Notes: generated by a model from the letters alone, not told the origin. 62,448 nt of DNA from Minisyncoccota bacterium (GCA_041661265.1 JBAZUT010000009.1:1-62448); one strand, 5' to 3'; positions 25,420 to 41,931 are shown, counted from the first letter of the stretch. Program-made: numbers and translations.

Positions 25420-28400
25420 TCAGCGTATACGGAAATCTTCGGATACGAAATAGAACCTGTCCAGAACGGTATCCGTCTTGGGAAGAACCCCCAAAACGAT
25501 CACGCGATTGCCGAAGAGATCTTCTATGCGATCTCCCGCAGTCTTGAATGCTTTCATCTTGATGAGAGCGTCAGCCTCTTCGGCGCCGAGATATATTTCC
25601 TGATATTGGCTGCCGCCTATATTGATCGCACCGAGCGAATCGATCTTTCCGACAAATTTCAAAGGCACATTTCCATCCGTCTCATAGATCAATTTGATCT
25701 CTGGCCCCATCCTTATCGCTTTCATATCCGCATCACTCCTGAGACGGCTGAAAGTATTTGAGTTCACAACATGATAATAATCCAGAATTGTTCCCGTGGG
25801 TTCCAATATCCCGGTCACCCTTACGGATGAAAGTCCGAAAAAGTCATTGATCGAATCATTGATGTTCCTGAATATTTTTTCTTCCTGCATCATCGTCGCC
25901 TCCGCATAGCCGACTATCATATCATTGTCATTCAGGCCGGATGATCCTTCTTTGATCTTGATTCCGTCGATATCGCCGGCTTTGAGGAAAAGCTTCGGAG
26001 AACCATCGACCGTAAAGTTTATTTTCGACTGCCCCGAAGACACCATATCCGTAATTTCATTTTTCATTTCCGCCGAGATCGCAGCTTTCTCCATTCCGCT
26101 GCCGCTTCCCATGCTTGAACTGATCTTCCCGAACTCGATGAACATGAATGTGAACAGGATCGCGAGGATGAAAGGAGCGATCATGGAAAGATAATTTTTC
26201 TTGTTCGGCTTGAAATATTTCAGAAGCAATGAATTCGAAACGACGGAGATCGAGCTGAATGCCATTGCAAGACCTGCGAGCTCGGGTTTCAGGACCAACC
26301 CGATGCTGACAAAAACCCTTGCGGCGATCGGGATCCCGATCACATTATAGAAAAGTGCAAAGAACATGTTCTGCCTGATCTTTGCCATCGTATCCCGGCT
26401 AAGGTCAAGCGCGGTCAGGACGTCCCTGAGGTCGTTCCTGATGATCACGATCCCGCCGGTTTCCATGGCAACATCCGTTCCGCCTCCCATGGCGATCCCA
26501 AGATCCGCCTGCGCGAGAGCCGGCGCATCATTGATCCCGTCACCGACCATGGCGACTTTTATTTTTCTCTCCTGCAATTTCCTCACTTCATTCGCCTTGT
26601 CCTGAGGAAGAACTTCCGCCAGGACATTTTTGATGCCGACTTGCTTTGCGATCGCATCTGCCGTTCTCCTGTTGTCGCCCGTGATCATGAAAACCTCGAT
26701 CCCTCTCTTTTGTAATTTCTGGACCGCCTCGAGCGAACTTTCTTTCAATGTGTCCGCAACCGCGATCAACCCAAGAATATCTTTTCCATTGGAAAGAATC
26801 ATAACGGTTTTCCCCGCTTCCTCGAGCCTTTTCATTTTCTTTTCCGCTTTTTCAAGATCCAAGCCAAGCGTTTCAACGATCAATTTTCTATTGCCAAGAT
26901 AATACATAACGTCACCCGCCTTCCCCTCGACACCATGGCCCGGAATCGCCTTGAAATCCCGCACCTCCGAAAGCTTTATGGATTCCTCTTCCGAATATTT
27001 TATTATGGCTTCCGCCAGAGGATGTTCGGATAGTTTTTCCAAACCACCCGCAATGGCGATGATATCATCCTCGTCGAACGAAGATGTGGCCACAATATCC
27101 GTAACTTCCGGCTTTCCATTGGTGAGAGTTCCGGTCTTGTCGAAAACGATCGCTTTGATCTTGTTGGCCGCTTCAAGCGGTTCCCCGCCTTTTATAAGCA
27201 CTCCGTATTCCGCTCCTTTTCCGACCCCAACCATGATCGCCGTTGGAGTTGCGAGCCCCAGCGCGCACGGACAAGCGATCACGATCACAGACGTGAATGC
27301 CATAAGGCTGAATGTAAGACCCGCACCAAACACATAGAACCAAGCAACGAATGTAAGAGTTGCGATCACCAGAACTGCCGGCACGAAATATGAGGATATT
27401 TTGTCTGCCATCGCCTGGATCGGAGCCTTGGAACCCTGCGCATCCTCGATAAGGCGTATGATCTGTGCCAGCGCCGTCTCGTTTCCGACCTTGGTCGCTT
27501 CAAATTCAAAACTTCCATGTTTGTTTATCGTTGCTCCGATCACTTTGTCACCGACATTTTTCTCAACCGGTATGCTTTCTCCCGTAAGCATCGACTCATC
27601 GACGGAGGATTTGCCCTTTGTCAGAACTCCATCTACCGGGATCTTTTCTCCCGGTCGGACCACGATCACATCGCCCTTGACCACCTGCTCGATCGGTATG
27701 TCGATCGATCCTCCATTTCTCACAACCCTCGCCGTCTTTGGCTGGAGGCCCATAAGTTTTTTGATTGCTTCCGAAGTCCTTCCCTTTGCCTTCGCCTCAA
27801 GCCATTTCCCAAGGGTCACAAAGGTGATGAGGAATGCCGCCGTTTCAAAATATAGCTCGGGTATTTTTTCTCCGTTCAGGCCTATAAAAGAATCGTTTCT
27901 CGAAAAATATGCCGCGAACTGCCACAAGCTGTAGAAAAACGCCGTGCTCGTTCCGATCGCGATCAAACTGTCCATATTGAATGTCTTCATCTTCAAACTG
28001 CTCCACATGCCTTTATAGAATCCCGCGCCGATCACGAACTGGACCGGAATGGTCAGCACAAACGAGATTATTCCGATATATGGCGTCAGCGTTTCTTTCA
28101 GGGGAATAAAACTGAAAAAATCAAAAAGCATAAAGTATAACATCGGAAAGCTCAAAATAAAAGAAATGACAAATTTGTTTCTAAATCCATCGATCTCTTT
28201 CTGCTTTCTCCTGCGTTCAGCATCCGGATCCGCATCGTTCGGGAGGCTGGCGCCATATCCGACCGCCTTCACCGCCTTCACAAGATCATTTACACCCGCT
28301 TTCGATGAATCAAAGATAACCCTCGCCTTTTCCGCGGCGAAGTTCACATTAGCCTCTTTCACCCCCGGAACTTTCGCCAGTTTCTTCTCGATTATTTTGG

Positions 28401-29046
28401 CGCATGATGCACAGTGCATTCCGCTGAGAACAAGATTCACATGCTGATCGCCCGCCTTGGCTGCCGCAATAGATTCAGTTTTGACGGCTTTTTCCTCCTT
28501 GACGACCGGTCCGCTCGCGGAAGAACTTATGCTTCTCGGCGGATTATCCGAGAAAGCCCCCAGAAGCTGATTGATCTTGGACGAATTAAATATGCTCTGG
28601 ATCGCTTTTTCGACATCCTGTCTCCCCTCGGGGATCTCGAACTCACCCCTTTTCAGATGATTTATCTTCCCTTTGAAATTCGGGTTGCCGTCCTGCTGGA
28701 AAAACTCTCCGTCCGCAACAACGGATGATTCAAGCCGGATCCTCACGGGAGAGTTTGCATCCACTATTTTCTTCTCGATGACGACCTCCTCTTTTGACAG
28801 CGCTTCACTATCCGATCCTGATGGAACACCTTCGATAATTGTTCCCTTATAGCCGGCCTTCTCAATCGCCAAGACAATTTCCTCATTTTTCACGATGCTG
28901 TCGTCAAAAACAACCTCTCCCGTTTTATTTTTGAAATCGAACTTGGTGGACTTTACTCCAAAGATCTCCATCACCTCCATATCAATTATCTTTTCGCATG
29001 ACGCGCAATGCATTCCTTCAACTTGTAATTTTATTGTTTTTTCCAT
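25420..29046 (-). CDS. copA: Cu(I) P1B-type ATPase with two N-terminal HMA domains and a ~260-aa C-terminal extension
   Basis: MHCASC x2, [36 protein letters not shown] and MAFSSISV. After the last core TM there is an extra TM plus 263 aa. Confidence 0.9.
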
Positions 29047-29085
29047 AATCTTTTCTTATTAATGAGATTAATCGCCGACAACGGA

Positions 29086-29358
29086 TCAGCTGGTGATCTT
29101 GAAATTCTTAATTAGTTCTTTCACAAAACTTTCACGTTCTTCTTTTTTCTTGGAATTCAGCTTGTGAGCCGCACAAGAATTAAGATGCCCCTCCAGAATC
29201 AGATCATTGGCTCTTTTCAATAGACCGATGGTGGCGTTTACCTGCTGAGCGACATCAACGCAGTATCTTTTATCATCGATCATCTTCTGCAGAAGATTTA
29301 TCTGTCCCTGCGCCTTTTTTAAATTCAGCTGCACTTTGCTTTTATACGGTTCTATCAT
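29086..29358 (-). CDS. csoR: CsoR/RcnR-family metal-sensing repressor
   Basis: 90 aa. KRYCVDVAQQVNATIGLLKRANDLILEGHLNSC matches the C...H...C layout. Confidence 0.8.
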   Translation of the reverse strand: MIEPYKSKVQLNLKKAQGQINLLQKMIDDKRYCVDVAQQVNATIGLLKRANDLILEGHLNSCAAHKLNSKKKEERESFVKELIKNFKITS

Positions 29359-29387
29359 ACTTGTTGATATTAATCATATTATATTTC

Positions 29388-29559: not shown

Positions 29560-29760
29560 CTAAAACGCTACCGTCTTATCGGCCTTCGCAAGTGCACTTT
29601 CAATCTCATCTTCCGGCACTTCCCTCTCTGATTCAATTGCGGTTTCTCCATTTTTATTTATTTCCACGTTTGTCACTCCTGGAATTTTCTTTAGGACCAT
29701 ACTGCTAATTTTTATGCACGCGTCGCATGTTATATTCGTGATCGTAAAATTTTTCTTCAT
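29560..29760 (-). CDS. copZ: CopZ-like HMA-domain metallochaperone
   Basis: 66 aa with ITCDACIKI (CxxC) in a ferredoxin-like layout. Confidence 0.75.
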   Translation of the reverse strand: MKKNFTITNITCDACIKISSMVLKKIPGVTNVEINKNGETAIESEREVPEDEIESALAKADKTVAF

Positions 29761-29809: not shown

Positions 29810-31579
29810 TCAGTTTACCACTTTTATCACTCCCCTCGGAACGCCCATTGCGCAGGTAATGTTGTAATCCCCCGCTTTTTCCGGAGTAAATTCCATTACC
29901 ATCTTTTTCCCGCCCTCAAGATATTGTGCCGAATTATAAAGACCCGGAACCATAACCGAACTCATGCATCCCTGTCCGTCTTCTTTAACATCGATCTCAA
30001 ATCTGACCGGAACTCCCTTTTTTACCTCGAAATTATTCGGAACTATATCTTTCGATAAAGTATAATCGGCTTTTATGATCTGCCCTTCGTTCGTTTTCGC
30101 CTGAGGCTGAGTCGCAACAGGATCTATGTTCTTTTTTGCGCCGCCTCCGCATCCGCAACCGCCGCCTCCCGATCCGCAGCTTCCGCCTGCCTGTGCCTGA
30201 ACATTGTCTGAGCTTGGACTCGGACTTGAATTGCTTGCGCCAGCTCCGGATCCCGGCTCAACCACGATGAATTTTCCCCTATACATCCCCATGGAACATG
30301 AGAAAGGTATTTCTCCTGTTTCTTTCGGGACGAACTCGATCACATTCTCGCCCTTCTTCAAACTCTTTGAGATCCCGTATTTGGGCATCACTATCGAACT
30401 TGCACAGGAGAATTGATTCGTTGACGTTATGATCCACCTGACCTTTTTTCCTTTTTCAACCGTAAGCACATTCGGCGTATATCCGGTGTTCCCTTGTGTC
30501 ATTTTCACTTCCTGAACTTCCAAAGAACTGCTCGCGACATCAATCGCACTATCCGCCTTTCCCTGGAAAACCAGCTGGCTTCCATTCGTTATATTTATCC
30601 AGCCTAGAATTATAACCGCCAAGCCCGTCGTTGCAAAAAAGGTCCTTGCGTTTTTTCCTTTGAACATTGAAGAAAGTCCCCCTATTCCCAGAAGTCCCGG
30701 AGCGGTTCCAAGCGCAAAAAGAGACATAATCAGCGCGCCGTTCACGAATCCTCCGCTTCCAACCGCATAAAGCTGCATGGCCTGAGTAAATCCGCATGGA
30801 AGAAAAAAAGTCAGTGCCCCGGTAATGGCCGCGCCTTTGTGGCTGTATTCTTTCTGTTCTCTCTTGATGCCAAGCGCCTTTGAAATCCCCTTGGGAAGAG
30901 ATATTGTAATGTCTTTCATGAACGGAAATATCTCAATAAGCTTCAGGCCCAAAAAGATCATCACTCCTCCGATTATTATCGTCATAAGTCCCATTGAGCC
31001 CGGAGATGGCTGAAACGCCGAACCGATCATTGCAAGTATACCTCCGAAGATCCCGAAGCCTGCTATTCTTCCAAGATTGAAAAACAGATGAGGCCGGAAT
31101 TTCTGGCTCGAGGTTATTTCCGGATGCGCCTCGGCATGTTGCGCGGAAATGCTTAGCACAAGCCCTCCTACAAGAGCCATGCATGTCGACACGCCCGCCA
31201 CAAGACCCACCATCAGAACCACGGGATAGCTTACATTTTCCGAATTGACGCTATAATCAAGAATACCCGTAAACTTGGCGACAAAAAAAATAATAATTAG
31301 GATTATTATCCCGTTCAACAGGTTATTGTAATCATTTTCGTCTTTTGATATCCATTCAACTTGGTTTTTATATCCGACATCATAGCCTATATTCTTGACT
31401 GCATTATATATCGCCTCCCCTTGAGACGGAATGCCCTTTTTGAAATATAGATCGGCTTTTCCTGTCCTGTAATTTACTTCAACATTTTTGACGCCAGGAA
31501 CATCTTTCAGCGCTTCCTCAACCAGCAACTCGCAGCTCCGGCAATGCATACCCTTGATCGGTACTGTGACTTTGTTCAT
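29810..31579 (-). CDS. HMA domain - polytopic membrane domain (TauE/DsbD_2-like) - two cupredoxin-like domains
   Basis: MHCRSC at the N-terminus. About 6 TM helices. Repeats FSCASSIVMP..FSCSMGMYRG and CMSSVMVPG..ITCAMGVPRG, separated by the Gly/Cys linker GGSCGSGGGGCGCGGG. Confidence 0.7.
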   Translation of the reverse strand: MNKVTVPIKGMHCRSCELLVEEALKDVPGVKNVEVNYRTGKADLYFKKGIPSQGEAIYNAVKNIGYDVGYKNQVEWISKDENDYNNLLNGIIILIIIFFVAKFTGILDYSVNSENVSYPVVLMVGLVAGVSTCMALVGGLVLSISAQHAEAHPEITSSQKFRPHLFFNLGRIAGFGIFGGILAMIGSAFQPSPGSMGLMTIIIGGVMIFLGLKLIEIFPFMKDITISLPKGISKALGIKREQKEYSHKGAAITGALTFFLPCGFTQAMQLYAVGSGGFVNGALIMSLFALGTAPGLLGIGGLSSMFKGKNARTFFATTGLAVIILGWINITNGSQLVFQGKADSAIDVASSSLEVQEVKMTQGNTGYTPNVLTVEKGKKVRWIITSTNQFSCASSIVMPKYGISKSLKKGENVIEFVPKETGEIPFSCSMGMYRGKFIVVEPGSGAGASNSSPSPSSDNVQAQAGGSCGSGGGGCGCGGGAKKNIDPVATQPQAKTNEGQIIKADYTLSKDIVPNNFEVKKGVPVRFEIDVKEDGQGCMSSVMVPGLYNSAQYLEGGKKMVMEFTPEKAGDYNITCAMGVPRGVIKVVN

Positions 31580-31694: not shown

Positions 31695-31734
31695 ACCTAC
31701 TATTCATTGTAGTAGGTTAGATAAAACTTGTCAA
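31695..31734 (-). promoter_or_regulatory. promoter with palindromic operator ACCTACTA-N7-TAGTAGGT over the -10
   Basis: Minus strand: TTGACA (31734-29), 17 nt, TACAAT (31711-06). The palindrome spans 31695-31717. Confidence 0.65.
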
Positions 31735-31770: not shown

Positions 31771-34011
31771 TCAAATGTTTATCAGATCCTTTTCCGCGCT
31801 TTTCAAGAAGACGGCATTGGTCGCCACGATGATCGAAGATATGCTCATCAGAAGAGCTGAAACTTCAGGCCTTAAATATATACCATAACCGGGATATAAT
31901 AATCCTGCTGCAACGGGTATGGCCAAAATATTATAGATCGACGCCCAAACAAGATTTTGCTTCATTTTTCTGACTGTAGCCTTTGATAATCGGATGGCTC
32001 TTAATATATCGGCCGGGTCGGATCTCATCAGTACCACCTTGGCGGTTTCGATCGCTACGTCCGTGCCGGCGCCGATCGCGATCCCGATGTCCGCCTGCGC
32101 GAGAGCAGGAGCGTCATTCACGCCATCACCCACCATCGCCACGAATTTTCCTTCATCCTGAAGTTTCTTCACATAAATGGATTTTTCTTCAGGCAGAACC
32201 TCGGAAAAAACGCGATCAATGCCAACTTGCTTTCCGACCGCTTCTCCGGTTTTTTTGTTATCGCCGGTGATCATTGCCACCTCCAGACCCAGTTCCTTCA
32301 TGCGCAATATGGCGATCTTTGCAGTGGACTTTATGGGATCAGCGGCAGCAAGCACTCCGGCCATTTTTCCGTCTATTGCGATCATAATTATCGTTTTTCC
32401 CTCATTTAGCATTTGCTCAAAATCTCCCCGAAGAACTGAAACATCGACATTTCTGTCCTTCATAAGCTTCATGGTGCCTGCCAGAACATGCCTCCCCTCC
32501 ACTGTCGCCTCCAAACCTAATCCGGACAATGATCTGAAATTTTCCGCATTTTCAGAAAAATTTATACCCCTCTTGTTCGCTTCCTCCAAAACTGCCCTGC
32601 TGAGGGGATGCGCGGATCTCATTTCAACGCTGGCTGACAATCTTAATATTTCGTCTTCAGAAAATCCTTTAACGCAAACGATATCCGTTATTTTCGGCTT
32701 CCCTTCGGTCAAGGTTCCCGTTTTATCCAGAACGACAGCCTGAATCCCGGATAGCCGCTCAAGAGTTGAGGCATCCTTGATCAATATATTATGTTTTGCG
32801 CCAAGACCCGTGCCGACAGCGACAGCCGTGGGAGTTGCAAGGCCCAATGCATCGGGACAAGCGATCACTATGGTAGAAATGGCAAAAGTTAAAGCGAACA
32901 TCAGAGATTCGCCCATCACAAAATACCAAACAAAAAAAGTGAGCAATCCGCCGCCCACTGCCACAACAACAAGATATCCGGCAAATTTATCCGCAAGCCT
33001 CTGTCCGGGCGCTTTGGAATTCTGTGCAGTCTCGACCATTTTTACGATTTGGGCGAGTGCAGTATCCTTTCCGACTTTTGTGGCTTTGAATTTCACAGAA
33101 CCGGATTGATTGATCGAACCGCCGGTGACGCTATCTCCGGCTTTTTTTGAAACAGGGATCGATTCTCCCGTTATCAATGATTCATCGATCGCGGTTTCGC
33201 CTTCAATGACCTCCCCGTCAACCGGCACCTTGTCGCCCGGCTTCAGGATCAGAATATCTCCGATCTTAACCTCAGATGTCGGAATGATCGCCTCTTCGCC
33301 ATCCCTGACGACTCTGGCGCTTGGCGGAACAAGAGCAAAAAGCGCCTGAAGCGCATCGGTTGTTCCCCTTCTAGATTTCATTTCCATCCAATGCCCGAAC
33401 AGGACAAAAGTAATAAGCATTGCCGCCGCTTCATAAAAAGAATCTTCACTGCCCATTAGGGTCAGGATCAAACTGAAAACATACGCGGCAGTGATTCCGA
33501 CCGCAATAAGCACTGACATATTAAGAGCCCTCTTTTGGAGAGCTTTATATGCGGAATAAAGAAAGATCCAGCCGGCATAAAAAAATACCGGCGTAGTGAG
33601 AATGAACAAGATCCACGTAGCGGGAATAAGAGAGGGCAGCTTCAAACCGAATATCATTTCTCCCATCGGAGAATATAGAATGATAGGAATTGTCAAAAGA
33701 AAAGCGAAAAAGAATTTATTTCTGATGTCGATCTCCATAAGCCGGGCCATTTCCCGCCCCGCCAAACCCGTATGATCCATGCCCATGGTCATCGTCATGC
33801 TCATTTTAAATTTTTCCCAAAAGGACATTCCTCCGGAAGATCCCATTGTGTGTTCATGATGATCGTGCATTTCATGATCCGAGGCTTCACCGGATCTGCT
33901 ATTTTCGACCGGAACCAGTTTCATTCCGCATTTCGAACAATTTCCGGGCTCGGTTTCCCTGATCTCGGGATGCATGGAACAGGTATAGATCACATTTTGA
34001 CCTTGGTTCAT
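31771..34011 (-). CDS. P1B-type heavy-metal ATPase, CopB-like, with CPD instead of CPC/CPH
   Basis: N-terminal YTCSMHPEI..CSKCGM and the His-rich HEMHDHHEH. Also TGES, ACPDALGLATP, DKTGTLT, GDGVNDAP, YNILAIP and MSISS. Confidence 0.85.
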   Translation of the reverse strand: MNQGQNVIYTCSMHPEIRETEPGNCSKCGMKLVPVENSRSGEASDHEMHDHHEHTMGSSGGMSFWEKFKMSMTMTMGMDHTGLAGREMARLMEIDIRNKFFFAFLLTIPIILYSPMGEMIFGLKLPSLIPATWILFILTTPVFFYAGWIFLYSAYKALQKRALNMSVLIAVGITAAYVFSLILTLMGSEDSFYEAAAMLITFVLFGHWMEMKSRRGTTDALQALFALVPPSARVVRDGEEAIIPTSEVKIGDILILKPGDKVPVDGEVIEGETAIDESLITGESIPVSKKAGDSVTGGSINQSGSVKFKATKVGKDTALAQIVKMVETAQNSKAPGQRLADKFAGYLVVVAVGGGLLTFFVWYFVMGESLMFALTFAISTIVIACPDALGLATPTAVAVGTGLGAKHNILIKDASTLERLSGIQAVVLDKTGTLTEGKPKITDIVCVKGFSEDEILRLSASVEMRSAHPLSRAVLEEANKRGINFSENAENFRSLSGLGLEATVEGRHVLAGTMKLMKDRNVDVSVLRGDFEQMLNEGKTIIMIAIDGKMAGVLAAADPIKSTAKIAILRMKELGLEVAMITGDNKKTGEAVGKQVGIDRVFSEVLPEEKSIYVKKLQDEGKFVAMVGDGVNDAPALAQADIGIAIGAGTDVAIETAKVVLMRSDPADILRAIRLSKATVRKMKQNLVWASIYNILAIPVAAGLLYPGYGIYLRPEVSALLMSISSIIVATNAVFLKSAEKDLINI

Positions 34012-34143: not shown

Positions 34144-34356
34144 CTACTTCTTCGCAATATGCGATTCCGGATCCTGGCTGAACTGATCTTTGCAGTGATC
34201 AGAACAGAAATAATAGGTCTTTCCGTGATACTGATATGTGATCAGACTTTTTGTCGCTTCCATGCCGCAAACAGGATCAATAGCTTTCGGTTCGGGTATT
34301 ATCCGATAACCGAGAGCCTTTATCTTCCTGAATAACGATTTGTATTTATTTGACAT
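34144..34356 (-). CDS. YHS/TRASH-domain protein
   Basis: DPVCGMEA..YQYHGKTYYFCSDHCKDQF. Confidence 0.75.
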   Translation of the reverse strand: MSNKYKSLFRKIKALGYRIIPEPKAIDPVCGMEATKSLITYQYHGKTYYFCSDHCKDQFSQDPESHIAKK

Positions 34357-34395: not shown

Positions 34396-35658
34396 TTATG
34401 TGAACCAGATCAGCATGATCGCACCGAGGGCTATCATTACAGCCGCTCCGAAAACCTTTATCTGCGGGACTTTGGATTGCTCCCATCTCTGGAAAACTTC
34501 CAGCGTCCTCTTGTTGGACATCGCAAGAAGTATGATAATAAGCGGCATTACGAACATTATATTATAAAGTATGAGATATCCGAATCCGATCGCGGACGTT
34601 GTCTGTGAGACAAGCAGGCCTATTATGGCGACATAGATCCCTCCTGAGCACGGGAATGTGCAGAGCCCGACGAAAAAGCCGAGAATAAAAGCCGAGGGAA
34701 GCGTTGCCTTGTGGACGTATTCTTTGATCGTTCCTTTCGCAATGTGAGGTATTTGGAGCCTTATCGGGAAGCTCGGAATGAGAATGCCGATGATATTTAT
34801 GATCCCAAGGATTATAACGAGCCATGCTCCGATCTTTGCCATGGCGTGGGGAGCGTTGATGAACATCACTGTACTGACCAGCCCGAGTCCGATCGCAAGA
34901 TAGGCGAGGAATATGGCCGCGATATATACGACCCCTGTTTTCCAAACGTCTTTCTTGGTCCTCTTCAGGGTGTAAAGAAACGAAATAAAAAAGAGAAGGA
35001 CCGCAAAAGCGCAGGGATTTATCCCGTCCAGAAACCCGGAAACGAGAACGATCGGCAGAATGAAAGCTTCTTTATTCGAATTCGCTTTAAGCTCGTTTTT
35101 GTTATTTTCAAGATAGTCAAGGTATTCGCTGATCGGTGTGCCGATGGGGTAAGTCTTCGGCTCGCCCATATAATCATCTGCGTAGTTCGGGATACCGAAT
35201 ATTTTATAATTCTTGGCTTCACTGCCCATGTCGTCCTGGAAAACCAAAAGTCTCTTGAATCTTGAGCTGTTATCTTCGTTGAACATTTCCCCGACAATAT
35301 GATCCGGCATATGTCCCGCCATGATATATTTATCGCCGACAAATGTCATGATGTGGCCTTGCAGATCGAGGGGGATCCCGGCATCCTTCATCCTCCTGTT
35401 CATCTCAGGCCTGATATCTTTTCCGTTTATGTAATCCCTTTTGTCGATCTTGTTTATTCCCGCACCCTGAAGCTGCCTGGGAAGATCGTTCTTTACATAA
35501 TCCGCACACATTCCGCAAGCTTCGTTATAATATAATATGGCCTCCTGAGGATCTGATTGGGCTTGGGCGTTATGCGCCGGATGAGCAAAAAGAGCAAAAA
35601 TGTAAAATAATATAGCGGCGCAGGAGAATAATCCCTTCTTCAAATTTTTCTTTGCCAT
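34396..35658 (-). CDS. DUF411(CopG-like) domain fused to a CcdA/DsbD-type thiol-transfer membrane domain
   Basis: Signal/TM region, then YYNEACGMCADY..GIPLDLQGHIMTFVG..MAGHMPDHIV (DUF411-like). The membrane domain carries DGINPCAFAVL and FPCSGG. Confidence 0.65.
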   Translation of the reverse strand: MAKKNLKKGLFSCAAILFYIFALFAHPAHNAQAQSDPQEAILYYNEACGMCADYVKNDLPRQLQGAGINKIDKRDYINGKDIRPEMNRRMKDAGIPLDLQGHIMTFVGDKYIMAGHMPDHIVGEMFNEDNSSRFKRLLVFQDDMGSEAKNYKIFGIPNYADDYMGEPKTYPIGTPISEYLDYLENNKNELKANSNKEAFILPIVLVSGFLDGINPCAFAVLLFFISFLYTLKRTKKDVWKTGVVYIAAIFLAYLAIGLGLVSTVMFINAPHAMAKIGAWLVIILGIINIIGILIPSFPIRLQIPHIAKGTIKEYVHKATLPSAFILGFFVGLCTFPCSGGIYVAIIGLLVSQTTSAIGFGYLILYNIMFVMPLIIILLAMSNKRTLEVFQRWEQSKVPQIKVFGAAVMIALGAIMLIWFT

Positions 35659-35703: not shown

Positions 35704-35979
35704 TCAGTGGCACCCATGGCCTGAATGCGGCGCATCGCCATTTCCCGTCCCGTCCGGACCATGCTCTTTTCCACTCTTGCCGTGCGATCTTGCCATCATA
35801 ATGAAATGCCCGACCATGAAAACTCCCATCAGACCGAAAATAAACCATTTTGATGATCCACTCGCCAATCCGGCACCTCCCAATAAAAGAATAGCTAGCG
35901 GCAGTACAGCACAGCAAAATAACATCATAAGCATCATTCCAAGATCAGATTTACCGTTGTCATGATTATCCATATTCAT
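35704..35979 (-). CDS. small His/Met/Cys-rich membrane protein (DUF2933-like)
   Basis: MMLMMLFCCAVLPLAILLLGG followed by a second TM. The C-terminus is HSGHGCH. Confidence 0.55.
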   Translation of the reverse strand: MNMDNHDNGKSDLGMMLMMLFCCAVLPLAILLLGGAGLASGSSKWFIFGLMGVFMVGHFIMMARSHGKSGKEHGPDGTGNGDAPHSGHGCH

Positions 35980-36018: not shown

Positions 36019-36537
36019 TTAAACGGGTACTTGCTTAACCCGATCTCCATATCTGCAAATTACGCTCTTTTTGATATTCTCACACAATAGATATATAGAT
36101 ATCAGCAAGAATATTATTCCGGAAAGTTTGATCTCCAGACCGCGCAGGGGCAGAGTCATAAGACCGAATGGCATTCCAAGCAGAGCCAGGAGCGGCGCTC
36201 CGCATGACGGGCATCCGGAAACTATTATACCGGTTCCTATCCCCAGAATTCCCGCGGGTTTCCCATTTGAAAGCTTGATCTTATACCGGAGGTCGCTCCG
36301 CAGGATCAAAAGTGAAATGAACAATCCGGAAAGAACCGATGAAGAAAGCGCCATTATCATCGAAATTATCGTGTATGCGGTTCCGTTCATTTCCGCATAG
36401 ATATCCAGGTCTTTTCCGGACACATTGACAACCGTAAGATAATAGGAAACCGCCTCCACAAATAGCATAGCGGCAATCGCCGGCAAAAAATACCTTTTTC
36501 TTTTTATTATGATCTGTAAGAATTCAATCATTATCAT
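36019..36537 (-). CDS. polytopic membrane protein with intramembrane CPSC motif
   Basis: 172 aa with ~4 TM helices and IVSGCPSCGAPLL. Start overlaps the upstream stop by 4 nt. Confidence 0.6.
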   Translation of the reverse strand: MIMIEFLQIIIKRKRYFLPAIAAMLFVEAVSYYLTVVNVSGKDLDIYAEMNGTAYTIISMIMALSSSVLSGLFISLLILRSDLRYKIKLSNGKPAGILGIGTGIIVSGCPSCGAPLLALLGMPFGLMTLPLRGLEIKLSGIIFLLISIYLLCENIKKSVICRYGDRVKQVPV

Positions 36538-37055
36538 TTGATTACGTTCCCCGAAAATGTTATGACGCTTTTTGCATTTCCTTTTCCTCCGGTGTTGCTG
36601 ATTATATTGATCACCCTTGTTATCGGACCTACCGCATCCGGCCCGTGCGCCAGCGGATCAAAAACGGCCTCCAAAACAGCCGACTGCCCGGGAGCGATCT
36701 TTTCGGACCAGAACAGGGGCTTTACGCCATGTCCCGGCATGCTGAATTCCGGGCTTCTTCTTCCATCAACTACCAGCACGACCTTCGTGCACGCGCACGA
36801 AGTGCTGATATCGGTTATTTCCAGCGCCTGATCTCCGTCGTTCTTGATCTTAAATTCGTGGCGAGCAAGCCCGTTCTTCATGGATATATCCCCGAAATCA
36901 TAATCGGTTTCGGCTATGCTCAATTTGGCACTTCCGCCTTTTCCGCTCACTTCGCCATTTTCACCGAAAAAAATAAATGCTCCCGCGCCAAGGATCAAAA
37001 CTGCGAAAATCACTGCGAAGATCTTCGCGCGGGGATCTATCGATGCATTCTGCAT
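36534..37055 (-). CDS. DUF1573-like secreted/anchored protein
   Basis: N-terminal TM, then YDFGDISMKNG..HEFKIKNDGDQALEITDISTSCACT. Confidence 0.65.
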   Translation of the reverse strand: MQNASIDPRAKIFAVIFAVLILGAGAFIFFGENGEVSGKGGSAKLSIAETDYDFGDISMKNGLARHEFKIKNDGDQALEITDISTSCACTKVVLVVDGRRSPEFSMPGHGVKPLFWSEKIAPGQSAVLEAVFDPLAHGPDAVGPITRVINIISNTGGKGNAKSVITFSGNVIK

Positions 37056-37073: not shown

Positions 37074-37790
37074 TTATTCAACGATCAGCTTACCTTCCGA
37101 ATTTCCTCCGTCATAGAATCTGAACGATCCTTTTTTGTCTGCCTTGAAAACAACGCTTTGCGACTCGTCTCCCGCGTCGATCGTCTTTGCTATATTATAT
37201 TCATCCATCCTGAAATCGTATTTGGAATCCGGCTTGGCAAACTTGAGTTCCACATAAGTATTTTTCTTCGTTTTTATCTCAACCGGATCAAATTTACCGT
37301 TCTCATTTTTGATCTCATATGTTGCATTGCTCTCAGGCTTTATGACATTTGCGCTGATCTCTATTTCTTTTTCAGGAATGTTCTTGTCATTCGTTTTTAC
37401 ATATACGACCCTCTTGATCTCTCCCATGTCTGAATAGTTTCCATGGATCGCGGGATTCATGGAAACGGTCATGCCGGAGCTTTCCCCCGGAAATATTATT
37501 TTTACTCCATTGTTCATCTCGGCTTTCGTGCATCCGCATGACGTCGAGATCTTCAATATCTCCAGATTTTCATTCCCTGTATTTTTTATCGTAAATTCCT
37601 TTTTGGAAATTTCGCCATAAACCACTTTCCCGAAATCATATGAAGCAGGACTCGCTTCGATAGCGGGACCTCCCGCGACCTCCCGCGCTTTCCTGAAATT
37701 TCCGTAGTCGATCAGCGGCCTGTAGAAATACGCGACTGAACCTATCGCTATTACGATCAGGCATGAAAGAATAAATTTTGCTTTTGGCAT
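37074..37790 (-). CDS. DUF1573-like domain + C-terminal beta-sandwich (cupredoxin-like?) domain
   Basis: N-terminal TM, then YDFGKVVYGE..FTIKNTGNENLEILKISTSCGCT. The C-terminal ~100 aa is beta-rich. Confidence 0.6.
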   Translation of the reverse strand: MPKAKFILSCLIVIAIGSVAYFYRPLIDYGNFRKAREVAGGPAIEASPASYDFGKVVYGEISKKEFTIKNTGNENLEILKISTSCGCTKAEMNNGVKIIFPGESSGMTVSMNPAIHGNYSDMGEIKRVVYVKTNDKNIPEKEIEISANVIKPESNATYEIKNENGKFDPVEIKTKKNTYVELKFAKPDSKYDFRMDEYNIAKTIDAGDESQSVVFKADKKGSFRFYDGGNSEGKLIVE

Positions 37791-37834: not shown

Positions 37835-38992
37835 CTATTGCCCGGCAGAGCCCGGTTCAGGACTTATGATCTTTCCGCTTGCGAGGTCTTTATAGACGCC
37901 AAGCTGCTTTACTCCTTCCCTGAGAACATATGCGGACCCGTTCTCAACGGTTCCGATGCCGGGCCAGATCTTCGTCAGATTCTCGTATGCGCCGGGATCT
38001 CCCGTCATGATGATCACAGGGATCTGTCCGATCTTATATTTTTCGATCGTTTTTTTCGCTTCAACGCTTTCAATATCCAGGCTTTTTTTATCGCGGAATT
38101 TTATCCCGAAATTGCCGATCACCTGCTCGAAGCTGTTCGCGTCAAAACACTCAGTGCATGACTTATCGGAAATAATGGTCGCATCCACCATACCCCTGAC
38201 TTTGCCGCTTGATATCTCCCTATAGGGCGGGCTGACTTTGGTCAGAACGAAGATCCCGTCGTTGATATTTCCTATCTGATTCAATATCGGATAGCTTTCA
38301 AGGTCTCCCGTAATTATCACGGTAGGCACATTCTTTATTTCATTTTTATTTATAACTCTTTTCCCTTCCGGAGATGAAGCATCGACGCTGTCCTGGCTGT
38401 CGATCGCCATGCCAAGCTGCGTTTTGACCGCATTCACATATACATTCGGATCGAAACAGTTTGTACATGATGTGTCCGTAACAAGGATCAGATCAACCCT
38501 GCCCTTGGGCTCGCCTGTTTCAGCTGAAATATAGGGATTGCCTATTTTCGTCATTATAAAAGCTCCATCTTTGATCTCACCGGCTTTTGCAAAAAAATCT
38601 TTCAGCGCCTGATCCCTTTCGATCTCTCCGCTCACTATGACCGTCGGGATCTTCTTAATGGCATATTTTTTAATAAGCTCTTTTCCTTCATCACTGGAGA
38701 TCTCAAGTTCCCGCTCGGAAGTTATGCTCACCTTTTGTTTCTTAATGGCATCGATCATGGGCTTTACATCAAAACAATCGATACAGATGGAATCTTTTAT
38801 CGTGATGACATCCAATTTTGACGGGCTTTCAGCTTCTCCTGATTTGACGGAAAGCCTATCCAGATTCTTATTCGTGAGCGCAAGCGACATATATCCCGCA
38901 GATAGTGCAGTAGCGAAAATTACCGCAATAGGGATAATGATCCGGGATCTCAAGGGCACATTTGAACTCTGCAATGTTTTTTTCATATTCAT
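37835..38992 (-). CDS. membrane-anchored protein with three thioredoxin-fold-like CxxC repeats
   Basis: Start set at the ATG at 38992; the track start at 39112 overlaps the upstream gene. Three ~110-aa repeats each carry C(I/T)(D/N/E)CFD and a downstream (I/V)P(T/V)(V/I)I motif. Confidence 0.65.
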   Translation of the reverse strand: MNMKKTLQSSNVPLRSRIIIPIAVIFATALSAGYMSLALTNKNLDRLSVKSGEAESPSKLDVITIKDSICIDCFDVKPMIDAIKKQKVSITSERELEISSDEGKELIKKYAIKKIPTVIVSGEIERDQALKDFFAKAGEIKDGAFIMTKIGNPYISAETGEPKGRVDLILVTDTSCTNCFDPNVYVNAVKTQLGMAIDSQDSVDASSPEGKRVINKNEIKNVPTVIITGDLESYPILNQIGNINDGIFVLTKVSPPYREISSGKVRGMVDATIISDKSCTECFDANSFEQVIGNFGIKFRDKKSLDIESVEAKKTIEKYKIGQIPVIIMTGDPGAYENLTKIWPGIGTVENGSAYVLREGVKQLGVYKDLASGKIISPEPGSAGQ

Positions 38993-39023
38993 ATGATTTG
39001 GTCTTATAAAGACTTTATTTTTC

Positions 39024-39407
39024 TTAGCAGCCTCCGACCATGTTCGGAAGACTGTCGATGCTTGAAGGGACAGCAGCTGAGGAACTGCCTGATCCGAAAT
39101 TACCGCCTTCAATTTTCTTCATGACATTATACGACTCCAAGGCCTGCAATATCGAAACAGAGGTCAGAATGATCAGAATGAACGTCACTGTCATGCTTCC
39201 CCACTGGAGTCTGCCTTTCGTTTTGCTCTTCTCAATGCTCCTGATTATCGCTTCCTCGACCGGCCCGCTCTCTTCTTTGGTCTCAACGGCCGGCTGTTTG
39301 TGAGTCAACATATGCTTGTTCAATTCATTTATGTTTTCATGCCTCATTCCGCACAATTCGCAGTGCACTGAAGCTCCCGCTTTTTTTGAAATTTTTTTGT
39401 TTTCCAT
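39024..39407 (-). CDS. single-pass membrane protein: cytoplasmic C2H2-like zinc finger, external tail ending LPNMVGGC
   Basis: CELCGMRHENINELNKHMLTH, then the TM segment VTFILIILTSVSIL, and the C-terminus SIDSLPNMVGGC*. Confidence 0.6.
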   Translation of the reverse strand: MENKKISKKAGASVHCELCGMRHENINELNKHMLTHKQPAVETKEESGPVEEAIIRSIEKSKTKGRLQWGSMTVTFILIILTSVSILQALESYNVMKKIEGGNFGSGSSSAAVPSSIDSLPNMVGGC

Positions 39408-39456
39408 ATTTTTTTATAAATAATAATTATATATAAACATAAGCTGACGTTCTCTA

Positions 39457-40269
39457 TTATGAACACCCTCCGACCATGCCGGGAAGATTCTCTATTTCCG
39501 AGGGAAGCGGCACCTGTTTGTCTCCTTTTCCGTAATCGGGAAGCTTCGCTCCGAGAAGGATCGCTGAGACATCGGGGGTATAACTCCCGCTTTGGAGCTG
39601 GCCCGCCACTTTCTTTATCATCTGTTTCGGAAAATACATGCCTTTCCACTTGGCCAATTCCTTCAGGATCTGGTCATCGGTGTATTCTCCGCCGTGATTC
39701 TGGAGAAGATATGCCGCCAAGCCTCTCATGGCCATGGCGTGCGCGCACCCGCAAGCGGTCTTTCCGTTCGCAAAAATTATCGCCTTCGCCCCGCAGCAAT
39801 ATTCGCATGATATTTTCGTTCCGATCGCGCTATACCGTTTCAGATTCTCTCCTTCCGGAATTATCCTTTTTCCTCCCGGCTTGAGATCATAAGGATCGAA
39901 CTGGCGCATGACATTCATCGACTGCTGGACCTGATCGAAAGACACTCCGAGTTCTTTTCCATAGACCTCCGGCACTCCGCTTGAGATCACAAGGCTGATC
40001 GCGTCCTTTCCAATATCCCCGGTCAATTCTTTGCTGGCGTTCGCAGACACCGCAAATTGCTTGCCGTTTTTACCGGTAATATTTCCGAAAATGTCTCCCG
40101 CAACATCTTTTATCCCAAGCTTCGCATTTGTTGAATTCAGAAACACTTGATTCGCGCCCATTGTTATTATCAGCGCAAGGAGCAGACCAATGTTGACGAC
40201 GGACATTCCTCGCGATTCGTTCTCTTTCTCTTTGAAAGTCGGATCTGATACACCTTTATTTGTGTTCAT
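39457..40269 (-). CDS. membrane-anchored Cys-cluster protein ending LPGMVGGCS
   Basis: N-terminal TM, then SCEYCCGAKAIIFANGKTACGCAHAMAMRG, and the C-terminus SEIENLPGMVGGCS*. Confidence 0.6.
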   Translation of the reverse strand: MNTNKGVSDPTFKEKENESRGMSVVNIGLLLALIITMGANQVFLNSTNAKLGIKDVAGDIFGNITGKNGKQFAVSANASKELTGDIGKDAISLVISSGVPEVYGKELGVSFDQVQQSMNVMRQFDPYDLKPGGKRIIPEGENLKRYSAIGTKISCEYCCGAKAIIFANGKTACGCAHAMAMRGLAAYLLQNHGGEYTDDQILKELAKWKGMYFPKQMIKKVAGQLQSGSYTPDVSAILLGAKLPDYGKGDKQVPLPSEIENLPGMVGGCS

Positions 40270-40287
40270 TTTTGTTTGATATTGATT

Positions 40288-40327
40288 AACTACTATACAG
40301 TGTAGTAGGTTATTAATTGCCTGTCAA
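40288..40327 (-). promoter_or_regulatory. promoter with palindromic operator AACTACTA-N7-TAGTAGGT over the -10
   Basis: Minus strand: TTGACA (40327-22), 17 nt, TACACT (40304-299). The palindrome spans 40288-40310. Same architecture as 31695..31734. Confidence 0.65.
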
Positions 40328-40370
40328 ATTTACGCTGTTGAAAAGTTCCGTAAAATAATTTCTCCATATA

Positions 40371-40400
40371 AACAAAAAAGCGCCGTGACTCATTTCGGCG
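40371..40400 (-). terminator. intrinsic terminator after the BlaR1-like gene (hairpin flanked by T-runs on both strands)
   Basis: CGCCG-(10 nt)-CGGCG followed by CUUUUUUG on the minus strand. Confidence 0.6.
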
Positions 40401-40462
40401 ATTTTTTAAGATAAAAGATTCTAAATTTTTATTACTGAGATCACTGGCTCCATCCTAACGCT

Positions 40463-41509
40463 TCACTGAGCTTCGCAAGTCTCGTTTATTTCATGGCTGA
40501 CAGCATGCTGCATATCGCATGTTTTTTGCTCGTTCGTAAGCGCATCGAAAAAATCTATTTTCTTATTGTTTTCCAGAGTGCAAAGTCCCCCGCTATGCAT
40601 GTCATATGCCTTCGTACTGTTCGTGAGAGCGGATAGCACTGCCATTGATACGAAGACAAAAACGATCGAACAGGCGATCAGGCTTTTTCCAATATGCCTG
40701 AAATCCGGAACATACGCATTATCGGAAAGACGGTTGATCCTTTCAATAATGGCGGAACTTGATATGTCCGATGCCAGCCTGCTCTCTTCCTGTTCAGTGA
40801 TCTTGTAGATCGCGCTTGCCAGCTTCGGCTTGCCATACGGCTTGACGCAAGCCTGCTCATCGGCGGAAAGCTCGGAAAAAGTCAGATACTTCCTGACAAG
40901 TTTTCCGATCCCCGGAAGGATGAACAGTATATTCTGGAAGTATATGGCAATGAACAATTTCATAGGCTCATGGCTCTCCATATGCTGTTTTTCATGCAGA
41001 AGAACGGCTTTCAGTTCGGATCTGTCCAGCAGTTTAACAAGAGAACTCGATATGCAAATTTTCGGCTTCAGGAACCCATAGCAGAAAACGACCGCATCTT
41101 CACTACTGCACTCTATGACTCTTTCTTTTGCGATACCCAGTTCCCGGACGGCACAGCTCAGTTTCCATGAATGCTTCCTTGCGGCGCAGGAGGAAGAATA
41201 ATATTTTGAATACTTTTTGGTTGCAAAATATAATTTCAGGAACCTATGGACCGAAAATAGCATGAACGAGAATATCGCGAATGCAAAAATTCCCACTTCC
41301 GCAAATATGACCGGGTGCATATTCAAAAACTGGACGACATCCGTACACTGGCACGCAGTGCGCAAATGATGATAGAGAACTCCGAGATACAGATCCGCCT
41401 CGTTGTATATCCTGAATGATAAGAACATGATCGCGCCCACTACCAAAAATACTGCAAGCATAAGCTGTCCGAATGCGTAGTTGGTTTTTCTGGCATATAT
41501 CGGAGCCAT
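40463..41509 (-). CDS. BlaR1/MecR1-like M56 peptidase-family membrane sensor, short form
   Basis: HEKQH (HExxH) after TM helices. The ATG at 41509 lies 1 nt after the BlaI-like stop. The C-terminal tail holds 3 Cys. Confidence 0.65.
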   Translation of the reverse strand: MAPIYARKTNYAFGQLMLAVFLVVGAIMFLSFRIYNEADLYLGVLYHHLRTACQCTDVVQFLNMHPVIFAEVGIFAFAIFSFMLFSVHRFLKLYFATKKYSKYYSSSCAARKHSWKLSCAVRELGIAKERVIECSSEDAVVFCYGFLKPKICISSSLVKLLDRSELKAVLLHEKQHMESHEPMKLFIAIYFQNILFILPGIGKLVRKYLTFSELSADEQACVKPYGKPKLASAIYKITEQEESRLASDISSSAIIERINRLSDNAYVPDFRHIGKSLIACSIVFVFVSMAVLSALTNSTKAYDMHSGGLCTLENNKKIDFFDALTNEQKTCDMQHAVSHEINETCEAQ

Positions 41510-41510
41510 A

Positions 41511-41897
41511 CTATTCGATAAGTTTTTTAAGCTTGCTCTTCCACTCCTTCGACTTCCTGGAATCCGAACTCTCAATGATATCAAAAAATTGCGCGACAGC
41601 CACATCGCCATATTCCCTGAGAAAGCCCTTGATTATTTTTTGTGACTTTTCCTGGATAAAAGCTTCTTTCTCCTTCATTGATTCATAAACAAACGCTCCG
41701 CTCGCGTTGAGCTTTCTTTCTAAAACTCCTTTGTCATAGAGCCTCGACATCACGGTCATCACTGTAGTGTATGCGATCTTCCTTTTTTTTTGCATTTCCA
41801 AAAGAACATCTCTCACAGACGCGTTTCCCGCTTTCCACACGATCTCCATTATCTCCGATTCCAGATCGCTTAATATCTTTATGTTGTTCTTTGCCAT
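41511..41897 (-). CDS. BlaI/MecI/CopY-family winged-helix repressor
   Basis: LSDLESEIMEIVWKAGNASVRDV...IAYTTVMTVMSRLYDKGVLER. There is no C-terminal CxC metal motif. Confidence 0.8.
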   Translation of the reverse strand: MAKNNIKILSDLESEIMEIVWKAGNASVRDVLLEMQKKRKIAYTTVMTVMSRLYDKGVLERKLNASGAFVYESMKEKEAFIQEKSQKIIKGFLREYGDVAVAQFFDIIESSDSRKSKEWKSKLKKLIE

Positions 41898-41912
41898 ATC
41901 TGTAATTAATTC

Positions 41913-41931
41913 ATACTACACTAGATAGTAC
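41913..41931. promoter_or_regulatory. third copy of the TACTA-N7-TAGTA palindrome, upstream of the BlaI-like gene
   Basis: ATACTA-cactaga-TAGTAC, 16 nt upstream of the ATG at 41897. Confidence 0.5.

Follow-up and report, generated by a model that had tools for sequence, protein, structure and literature searches.

A conserved cysteine-motif gene module of Patescibacteria, DPANN archaea and Anaerolineae, its predicted BlaI/M56-type regulator and its association with copper-type genes

The contig JBAZUT010000009.1 (GCA_041661265.1, positions 1-62448) of a Minisyncoccota bacterium, referred to here at its full length of 62,448 nt as the window, carries a block of 16 consecutive genes from position 41897 down to 25420, in which a module of predicted membrane and envelope proteins with conserved cysteine motifs is followed by a set of copper-type genes. 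The window is bacterial, encoding MurJ, GARS and other typical genes, and the closest relatives of the central genes of the block are found in metagenome-assembled genomes (MAGs) of Patescibacteria, the candidate phyla radiation (CPR). An initial annotation of the block had counted 17 genes; the list of open reading frames (ORFs) of the window gives 16, as did the items named in that annotation itself, and every one of them lies on the minus strand, as had been described. Most of the window is minus-strand, so shared gene direction alone is weak evidence for a cluster; that the clustering goes far beyond chance follows from a gene order that is repeated in 69 loci. The module is written here as I-R-A-B-T-D-P-C, for repressor, M56 protease, Cys-cluster protein, transmembrane helix plus tail, thioredoxin-like repeats, DUF1573, GCxxCG protein and thioredoxin-CcdA-like protein, respectively. 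In the window its genes, with the starts of R and T adjusted to an independent gene call on an identical contig (348 and 383 aa), are:

41511-41897, minus strand: I, 128 aa, BlaI/MecI/CopY-family winged-helix repressor (PF03965, E 5e-22)
40463-41509, minus strand: R, 348 aa, M56/M48-type membrane zinc protease with an HEKQH motif
39457-40269, minus strand: A, 270 aa, N-terminal membrane anchor, all-alpha domain and flexible LPGMVGGC(S) tail
39024-39407, minus strand: B, 127 aa, single-pass membrane protein with an LPNMVGGC tail at its outer end
37835-38986, minus strand: T, 383 aa, membrane-anchored, three thioredoxin-like repeats with a CxxC each (CIDC, CTNC, CTEC)
37074-37790, minus strand: D1, 238 aa, DUF1573 Ig-like domain (SCGCT) and C-terminal cupredoxin-like domain
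36534-37055, minus strand: D2, 173 aa, DUF1573 with an SCACT motif (PF07610, 58.2 bits, cut-off 26.1)
36019-36537, minus strand: P, 172 aa, membrane protein with four hydrophobic segments
35704-35979, minus strand: small membrane peptide, 91 aa, CC pair in the first hydrophobic segment, His-rich C-terminus ending GHGCH
34396-35658, minus strand: C, 420 aa, N-terminal hydrophobic helix (signal peptide or anchor), thioredoxin-like domain and CcdA/DsbD-like membrane domain

Gene neighbourhoods were taken from metagenome contigs and from 62 loci in species-representative genomes, and were annotated with iterated hidden Markov models built from the window's 16 proteins. The loci that hold the module were collapsed to 58 clusters at less than 90% identity, and enough flanking sequence was required for each count. 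As an accessory module it is conserved among Patescibacteria, DPANN archaea and Anaerolineae, in the loci numbered L001-L071. CPR loci have the order I-R-A-B-T-(D)n-P-(C), and DPANN loci (Woese- and Nanoarchaeota) run from two cupredoxin genes through CcdA to A-B-T with no I-R pair, and Anaerolineae loci contain D, C and A; in both of the latter groups the tails described below are kept in the absence of any I-R pair. The individual associations are:

A next to B: 46 of 50 non-redundant loci
T after A and B: 39 of 47 loci
I and R upstream: 26 of 50 loci, CPR only
CcdA-like protein: 19 of 27 full-flank loci
P: 17 of 27 full-flank loci
DUF1573: 14 of 27 full-flank loci
P1B-ATPase within 10 kb: 9 of 27 full-flank loci
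CsoR: 8 of 27 full-flank loci
any copper-type gene: 20 of 27 full-flank loci

The last of these counts upholds the co-conservation with copper genes on which the initial annotation had made its proposal depend. Its further question, whether the central genes always travel with P1B-ATPases and CcdA, receives a divided answer: a CcdA-type protein is co-conserved and copper genes are enriched, but neither the ATPase nor CcdA is a constant companion. The copper link is thus an enrichment, not an obligation. Syntenic loci were also observed in third-party annotation (TPA) assembled MAGs titled ‘uncultured Gammaproteobacteria’ or ‘Methanosarcinales’ (L011, L013, L015, L018 and others; L051, L053, L057), with 50-56% identity to the CPR/DPANN loci (36-42% for the archaeal ones), and these titles are probably mislabels of CPR or DPANN bins.

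A search with protein A gave 773 homologues at E<=1e-3, all of those with a source name being from Patescibacteria/CPR MAGs; an exhaustive profile search among 1.84 billion representatives returned 274 clusters at 50% identity. The residues C155, E156, C158, C159, C173, C175 and H177 are invariant (alignment A1). The AlphaFold2 model of A reaches a predicted local distance difference test (pLDDT) score above 90 for residues 80-240, and a Foldseek comparison of this model with PDB folds gave no match (best E 3.5). When longer members of the A family were compared with Pfam, one FKBP fusion was found and nothing else informative. No Pfam (to E<=10), NCBIfam or PDB relative was detected for A, B or P, and the earlier view that the central genes are uncharacterized is borne out. 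More widely, Pfam searches at E<=10 gave nothing beyond noise, whether with A, B or P, with the 91-aa peptide, with the N-terminal domain of C or with a C-terminal extension of CopA (see below), PDB sequence and profile searches with A, D2, P and the N-terminal domain of C found nothing, and a Megablast comparison of the central 4.3 kb with plasmids gave no match.

Protein B consists of little beyond one transmembrane helix and its tail, and its N-terminal end is predicted to be cytoplasmic. A perfect C2H2 zinc-finger pattern (C-x2-C-x12-H-x3-H) was noted in this N-terminus (39300-39362, minus strand); the C2H2-like form is common to the window, L071 and L009, and other loci have CC and His-rich segments at this position.

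The two tails were described correctly in the initial annotation, as were the triple CxxC protein and the GCPSCG membrane protein. The peptide xPxMVGGC is the extreme C-terminus of both A and B and cysteine is the last residue, the window's A (LPGMVGGCS) carrying one extra Ser. The Met position varies to Gln and the Val position to Gln, Ala or Ser, and within every locus the tails of A and B carry the same variant, forming QVGGC, QQGGC, MAGGC, QSGGC and AP.MVGGC pairs; the loci with Gln tails appear to belong to a single clade. At the nucleotide level the picture is different, in that identical residues are encoded by identical codons in only 237 of 417 cases and, in the Gln variants, one gene has CAA where the other has CAG. 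Gene conversion was considered and rejected as the sole cause of the matching, because synonymous differences are this frequent, which argues that the match is maintained at the protein level. Such matching would be expected if the arms of both A and B fit one partner site.

The proteins encoded downstream of A and B carry cysteine motifs of redox type. Matches of T to thioredoxin families are weak (Thioredoxin_3 at 24.8 bits, equal to the cut-off, other thioredoxin families under threshold, and TIGR02187 at E 3e-6), and its CxxC motifs are conserved in 52 homologues, with two in most CPR loci and three in the window, its closest relatives and DPANN. D1 matches PF07610 (59.8 bits, cut-off 26.1), PF13473 (42.7 bits) and NF041425, the OS_HP2 (seleno)protein (E 5.5e-17), and its cupredoxin-like domain is without any Cys or His. 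The motif S-C-x-C-T is conserved throughout the D family, and DUF1573 occurs as a selenoprotein with selenocysteine in a UGC motif (PMC9312934), from which it is argued that the D motif is redox-active. In P, the sequence G-C109-P-S-C112-G in the third hydrophobic segment is invariant and C161 near the C-terminus is nearly so (alignment A3); P occurs as two paralogue types in CPR loci. The 91-aa peptide, for which a DUF2933-like identity had been suggested, has no family match even at E<=10 and has a homologue in L071.

Protein C had been called a DUF411-CcdA fusion. The fusion to a CcdA-like domain stands: NPC216 and C333xxPC337 are invariant in 34 sequences (alignment A2), so that each membrane half has one conserved Cys preceded by Pro, as in CcdA and DsbD, and 1880 full-length homologues conserve the architecture, several of them named CcdA by NCBI and JGI. 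The DUF411 part is not supported, as the N-terminal domain has no Pfam match even at E<=10 and a PDB sequence search finds no CopG; it is instead a CxxC thioredoxin-like domain in which C48xxC51 (CGMC), where helix 1 begins, is invariant, as are H102 and H116, and its top Foldseek matches are all thioredoxins, with weak E-values. The AlphaFold2 model of C (pLDDT 79.7) is helical throughout residues 200-419, and as a whole it gives only weak thioredoxin matches in Foldseek (E 0.3-2), probably diluted by the membrane domain. Other weak matches of C are to SfLAP PF11139 (20.2 bits, cut-off 35) and NF040495 ArsG (38.9 bits, cut-off 200).

The first two genes of the module encode a regulator pair. 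Repressor I matches Penicillinase_R (PF03965) at 78.8 bits (cut-off 22.6), reaches 45.7 bits with the CopY model TIGR02698 (cut-off 122), lacks the C-terminal CxCx4CxC metal motif of CopY and has no cysteine in its 128 residues, and it is therefore not a direct metal sensor of the CopY type. Protease R, the start of which is M35 of the ORF in agreement with the 348-aa gene call, matches PF05569 at 35.3 bits (cut-off 31) and has its HExxH domain between hydrophobic segments 2 and 3, as assigned by inspection. It has no penicillin-binding sensor domain (NF000326, 37.7 bits, cut-off 400). In its place are a first loop (HH..ACQC) with a conserved CxC and a Cys/His-rich C-terminal tail of 52 aa, C87, C89 and C344 (ORF numbering) being conserved. 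By this topology the CxC loop and the tail would face outward and the HExxH domain would be cytoplasmic, and R and I may therefore make up a proteolytic switch like that of BlaR1, with a head that senses thiols or a metal. Directly upstream of the repressor gene lies an unlisted ORF of 44 aa (42032-42166, minus strand; MMDYNYMMGYGGSSMMFFAWTIYLLVIAFLILAIAALWKYINKK) with a GGAGG ribosome-binding site and no Pfam match, which resembles the N-terminal membrane part of a SHOCT protein found between R and A in L071.

The palindrome TACTA-N7-TAGTA, 17 bp long, is present in exactly three copies in the 62-kb window, against 0.01 expected, and is the predicted operator of this regulator pair. The third copy precedes H2, a protein with HMA, DsbD_2 and cupredoxin domains from the downstream set. 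The regulatory elements are:

41914-41930: operator 1 (TACTACACTAGATAGTA), 17 nt upstream of repressor gene I
40365-40412, minus strand: terminator-like element between R and A, hairpin then T-run (-10.5 kcal/mol, z -2.1)
40291-40307: operator 2 (TACTATACAGTGTAGTA, plus strand), covering the -10 box of promoter TTGACA-17-TACACT (40327-40299), upstream of A
31698-31714: operator 3 (TACTATTCATTGTAGTA, plus strand), covering the -10 box of promoter TTGACA-17-TACAAT (31734-31706), upstream of H2

At the place between R and A where a terminator and a new promoter had been described, a terminator-like element and a promoter are found, and the promoters of A and H2 are near-identical. Across 1.03 Mb of sequence from the 69 related loci, 63 copies of the palindrome were counted, nearly all of them 16-70 nt upstream of I or A: in most CPR loci a copy precedes the BlaI-like gene by 16-42 nt, as operator 1 does, and in about 35 CPR loci the place of operator 2 is kept too, with a copy 30-70 nt ahead of A. 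Derived from 58 distinct sites, the consensus reads cTACTACAcTaTGTAGTAg, and its TACA/TGTA half-sites are those of the BlaI and CopY boxes. L023, L037 and L043 have additional copies, which are distant from the module, in non-coding sequence, and gave no new regulon members. The initial annotation had set the BlaI/M56 pair apart as a separate upstream unit; since CPR loci conserve the operator ahead of I as well as of A, the pair is identified instead as the module's own regulator. In the window, the operator is common to the central operon and to H2, such that the module is joined to the genes for Cu(I) export both physically and by a shared predicted operator.

These copper-type genes make up the remainder of the block:

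34144-34356, minus strand: YHS/TRASH small metal-binding protein, 70 aa (PF04945, E 4e-16)
31771-34011, minus strand: P1B-ATPase of CPD type, 746 aa, N-terminal HMBD domain and His/Met-rich stretch
29810-31579, minus strand: H2, 589 aa, HMA, DsbD_2 membrane domain and two cupredoxin-like domains with a Gly/Cys-rich linker between them
29560-29760, minus strand: HMA-like protein with a TCDAC motif, 66 aa
29086-29358, minus strand: CsoR-family repressor, 90 aa (PF02583, 71.7 bits)
25420-29046, minus strand: CopA-type P1B-1 ATPase, 1208 aa, two HMA domains and a CPC motif

Pfam and NCBIfam agree with most of the family names given earlier for the block, namely the BlaI-family, M56, two DUF1573, YHS, two P1B-ATPase, HMA-DsbD_2-2x Cupredoxin_1 and CsoR assignments. 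The 746-aa pump had been labelled CopB-like, and its His-rich N-terminus is present. It lacks the signature of the P1B-3 pumps, which have CPH in transmembrane segment 4 (TM4) and MSxST in the last transmembrane helix: it carries CPD in TM4 instead of CPC or CPH, together with YN(x)4P and MSISS, and an atypical CPD subtype of P1B-ATPase has been noted earlier (PMC5552934). A CPD-type ATPase accompanies the module also in L030, L033, L040 and L071, the last of which (A 80% identical) repeats the window order through YHS, the CPD-ATPase and H2. H2 matches PF13386 (108 bits), PF13473 (74.6 bits, two stretches) and PF00403 (43 bits); its first cupredoxin domain has the CupA-type C...CxMxM motif (FSCASS...SCSMGM), its second a reduced C...CxM form (TCAMGV), and from a count of seven hydrophobic segments both probably face outward. 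The 66-aa protein is a possible CopZ, as had been suggested; its TCDAC motif is present and its PF00403 score of 20 bits is below the cut-off of 24.8. CsoR carries the Cu(I)-type ligand set C33/H58/C62 (x-C-H-C). CopA has the CPC motif in TM4 and the HMA, E1-E2 and HAD domains of a P1B-1 pump, and is under a separate CsoR-type promoter, TTGACC-17-TACAAT (29416-29388), that contains the inverted repeat TACC-N9-GGTA. The C-terminus of this CopA (25420-26180, about 250 codons) adds an extra hydrophobic helix and a domain of about 235 aa that is free of cysteine and matches no Pfam family (best hit AIM24, E 0.04); in related loci the ATPases, at 687-847 aa, are without the extension.

Small copper-type proteins recur elsewhere. 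In CPR loci a CupA-type cupredoxin of 121-125 aa is often next to CopA. In the DPANN loci L050-L058 two small cupredoxins with a complete CuA motif (CxxxCxxxHxxM) always lie directly upstream of CcdA-A-B-T (e.g. L055 7570-8040, L056 6888-8675), and these archaea are thought to be without respiratory oxidases. A CuA motif is also present in the DUF1573-cupredoxin protein of L008, of which the window's copy has lost all ligands. In minimal loci a membrane-anchored family with HxH...HxHD...H motifs and no Pfam family is encoded between T and P; members of this family were seen at L004 11930-12430, L028 11976-12446, and L055 12895-13470 and 4577-5320.

Taken together, these features are consistent with an inducible extracytoplasmic thiol relay that would handle Cu(I) or copper-driven thiol damage, a reading to which a probability of roughly 0.45 is given; in broader terms, the probable role of the module is to shield the cell envelope from copper or thiol stress. 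The dedicated envelope machine for thiol/disulfide and copper handling proposed at the outset is, on the grounds of synteny, cysteine motifs, shared operator and copper-gene enrichment, a reasonable inference rather than a demonstrated function. Conserved motifs of redox type are the PC pairs in the membrane domain of C, CxxC in T, CxC in D, GCxxCG in P and, in the loop of R, CxC. In the mechanism envisaged, R would sense envelope copper or thiol-oxidation stress and then inactivate repressor I, the loss of which would free the three operator-bearing promoters P_I, P_A and P_H2. P_A would drive A, B, T, D1, D2, P, the small peptide, C and YHS, and probably the CPD-type ATPase too. Outside the membrane, reducing power would enter through the thioredoxin-CcdA fusion C and/or the GCxxCG protein P (the direction is a proposed one) and would then reach T with its several CxxC motifs and the DUF1573 proteins with their CxC, and these in turn would maintain A's Cys cluster, as well as the cysteines that end the A and B tails, in the reduced state. 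The tails, as flexible arms at the membrane surface, could then bind Cu(I) or resolve copper-induced mixed disulfides and exchange with a common partner, and CopA (under CsoR), the CPD-ATPase and the HMA-DsbD_2-CupA-like protein H2 would move Cu(I) out of the cytoplasm. Precedents for the separate parts exist in reductive envelope pathways of the ScsB type (PMC3322552), in the reduction of Cu-binding cysteines by TlpA before metallation (PMC7558416), in the transfer of Cu by PCuAC's C-terminal extension, in CupA (PMC7558416) and in the SoxY swinging arm (PMC5336275). A role of the CcdA-like protein in cytochrome c maturation was considered and rejected as unlikely, because CPR and DPANN almost never encode oxygen reductases and so lack the clients (PMC7507113).

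A more specific form of this proposal, in which A and B are a new class of membrane-tethered carriers, is speculative and on balance doubtful. Their co-evolving xPxMVGGC peptides would act as swinging-arm cysteines that shuttle Cu(I) or a thiol adduct between T, the CxC of DUF1573 and the membrane CxxC proteins, and, by way of its outward CxC loop, the BlaR1-type protease would sense the relay's load or redox state. Were it true, a penicillin-sensing architecture would have been repurposed in CPR as an envelope copper/thiol sensor, with its effector module exchanged with DPANN archaea.

Several observations weigh against a copper-handling thiol relay. Instead of a Cu site, the Cys cluster of A might be a structural site for Zn or a disulfide knot, and its spacing (CxxC-x13-CxC) falls on short strands in the model; the DsbD_TM match of C (PF02683) is sub-threshold at 18.7 bits against a cut-off of 27.1; the topologies of all membrane proteins were judged by eye from hydrophobic segments and flanking charges; and many loci come from related MAGs, so that the counts overstate independence. 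Minimal CPR loci of the form I-R-A-B-T-x-P (L004, L028 and similar) have neither a Cu pump nor CcdA within 10 kb, from which it follows that neither is obligatory. At least seven minimal loci are without any Cu pump, and a P1B-ATPase accompanies the module in no more than the 9 of 27 loci given above; with CcdA-like, thioredoxin-like and CxC proteins dominating the module, this would also suit a general envelope disulfide reductase, isomerase or repair system, an analogue of DsbD/DsbC or CcdA/Etrx that is induced by any thiol-oxidizing stress and has copper genes as neighbours only since stress and resistance genes often cluster. Such a system is nevertheless thought unlikely, for 20 of the 27 loci have a copper-type gene, the HxH..HxHD protein is present even in minimal loci, the inferred cytoplasmic ends of B are rich in His and Cys, the third predicted operator of the window precedes a CupA-like Cu(I) protein, and no Msr, peroxiredoxin or other client enzyme is found in the locus.

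The cupredoxins of related loci bring in the possibility of cuproprotein maturation, in which T and C, in the manner of TlpA, would act as reductants of the Cu-ligand cysteines in extracytoplasmic cupredoxins and A and B would deliver Cu by their tails, in the manner of Sco or PCuAC. The CuA-motif pair of L050-L058, the CuA motif of L008 and the CupA-type cupredoxins of CPR loci could all be clients, and TlpA, Sco and PCuAC provide the precedent, including a Cu-carrying C-terminal extension (PMC7558416). Set against these are the D1 cupredoxin domain of the window, which has lost all Cys and His, the many CPR loci without any cupredoxin, the general lack of CuA-using oxidases in CPR and DPANN (PMC7507113) and the combination of a BlaI/M56 stress-type switch with CsoR-CopA linkage, which fits detoxification better than assembly; maturation as the function is accordingly considered quite unlikely. 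The tails might alternatively hold some other thiophilic species covalently at their terminal cysteines (sulfane sulfur or polysulfide, Se, Te, Hg, Ag or As), and GGC-COOH on a flexible linker does resemble the swinging-arm carrier cysteine of SoxY (PMC5336275). The selenoprotein form of DUF1573 (PMC9312934), the weak ArsG and ArsF similarity of C and T, and the DUF302, SHOCT and methyltransferase genes of some loci point the same way. Such a carrier is very improbable in view of the Cu(I)-type C-H-C ligands of the window's CsoR, the neighbouring metal genes, which are all copper-type, and the absence of sox, mer, ars and sulfur-oxidoreductase genes from every locus examined. It is also conceivable that LPxMVGGC is a sorting or processing signal for lipid or cell-wall attachment and that the M56 protease is the processing enzyme and not a regulator, given that the motif stands only at the C-terminus and is conserved in a pair of adjacent proteins, that M56 is related to M48, the family of CAAX proteases, and that R has a Pfam M48 match. 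By inspection, however, the HExxH domain lies on the side opposite the tails; R never occurs without a BlaI-type DNA-binding partner, the operator of which stands upstream of I and A, and DPANN and Anaerolineae keep the tails without the pair, so that hardly any weight is given to a sorting role.

When the proposed thiol relay is compared with known systems, the closest regulatory parallel is to BlaI/BlaR1 (MecI/MecR1), in which a winged-helix Penicillinase_R repressor likewise adjoins a membrane M56 HExxH protease and the pair is autoregulated, as the operator position suggests here. A palindromic operator with TACA/TGTA half-sites that covers the -10 box is shared with both BlaI/BlaR1 and CopY, and the targets of CopY in the cop operons of Firmicutes also include a P1B-ATPase and a CupA-type cupredoxin. 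The differences are that the outward parts of R are a CxC loop and a 52-aa Cys/His tail where BlaR1 and MecR1 have a penicillin-binding domain, that I has no CxCx4CxC metal site, and that the genes controlled, unlike those of either system, are a set of envelope Cys proteins. The cop box has the form TACAnnTGTA, and the half-sites of the window (TACTAC-N5-GTAGTA) are one base wider. In Streptococcus pneumoniae CupA/CopA, too, C...CxMxM Cupredoxin_1 domains stand beside a Cu(I) P1B-ATPase under a BlaI-family repressor, whereas the cupredoxins here are fused behind HMA and DsbD_2 domains, probably face outward, and the classical CopA is under CsoR.

As in the DsbD, ScsB and CcdA pathways, a membrane protein with two Pro-Cys sites adjoins putative extracytoplasmic thioredoxin-like CxxC proteins, and the DUF1573 Ig-like Cys domain takes the place of the Ig-like alpha domain of DsbD; genetic linkage to copper tolerance or to Cu-site cysteines is shared with ScsABCD and with CcdA-TlpA-Sco/PCuAC. 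The module departs from these pathways in that the domains are split over separate genes, thioredoxin is fused N-terminally to the CcdA-like domain, T has two or three tandem thioredoxin-like repeats, three extra families without relatives (A, B and P) are present, the DsbD_TM score is sub-threshold and the hosts have no cytochromes c and oxidases. The N-terminal domain of C shares with CopG (DUF411) a thioredoxin-like fold, a Cys motif at the start of helix 1, conserved His and a copper locus, and differs from it in the missing DUF411 profile match, in having CxxC (CGMC) rather than CxCC and in its fusion to a CcdA-like membrane domain. The likeness to SoxY is one of analogy only: an invariant Cys preceded by Gly-Gly ends a flexible C-terminal peptide that must reach into partners. 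The SoxY motif is GGCGG, whereas the tails of A and B stop at GGC-COOH, and A and B are membrane-anchored, without SoxY/SoxZ homology and without Sox enzymes, in a copper context.

Many of the components are thus already familiar, namely BlaI/M56, CcdA-like, thioredoxin-like and DUF1573 proteins and copper pumps, as is the concept of a copper-linked reductive envelope pathway. What is new comprises the three families without relatives, the C-terminal Cys arms that match between A and B, a switch of BlaR1 type bearing a Cys/His head, a predicted operator that is well defined and the spread across CPR, DPANN and Chloroflexi. Literature searches on DUF1573 and copper, on BlaR1 and copper or Patescibacteria, on ‘MVGGC’ and on CcdA and CPR found no description of this cluster, and no case of a BlaR1-type protease answering a metal or redox cue instead of a beta-lactam was found in the literature searched. 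CPR and DPANN make up a large share of microbial diversity, and most of their envelope proteins have no assigned role; the locus defines for them a multi-gene module with its own regulator and a clear predicted operator, common to CPR, DPANN and Chloroflexi. If the proposed relay is true, it would show how ultra-small cells without cytochromes defend extracytoplasmic thiols against copper, would provide a BlaR1-type protease that apparently answers a metal or redox cue and not a beta-lactam, and would bring a new principle, that of the carrier arm, into copper trafficking. The operator, promoters and soluble domains are all small, and can be tested directly in vitro.

At the edge of the block, the tRNA-Pro that had been reported was located at 42593-42666, and an Rfam scan of the window returned the four tRNAs and nothing else. 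The reported absence of an integrase from the flanks also holds, and a mobile island was rejected as an explanation, the flanks having neither an integrase nor evidence of repeats. A GC-rich stretch at 42385-42560 had no Rfam match in a sensitive scan of 41900-42800, and its fold is not unusual (z -0.55). Adjoining the CopA end of the cluster on the opposite strand (23208-24053, plus strand) is a gene for a Cys-rich protein of 281 aa with a DUF2769 domain. Two genes for nucleotidyltransferases of the PolyA_pol/CCA-adding type were observed in the window, at 13548-15020 (plus strand) and 47162-49537 (minus strand), and the product of the latter is unusually long, at 791 aa, with a split head domain.

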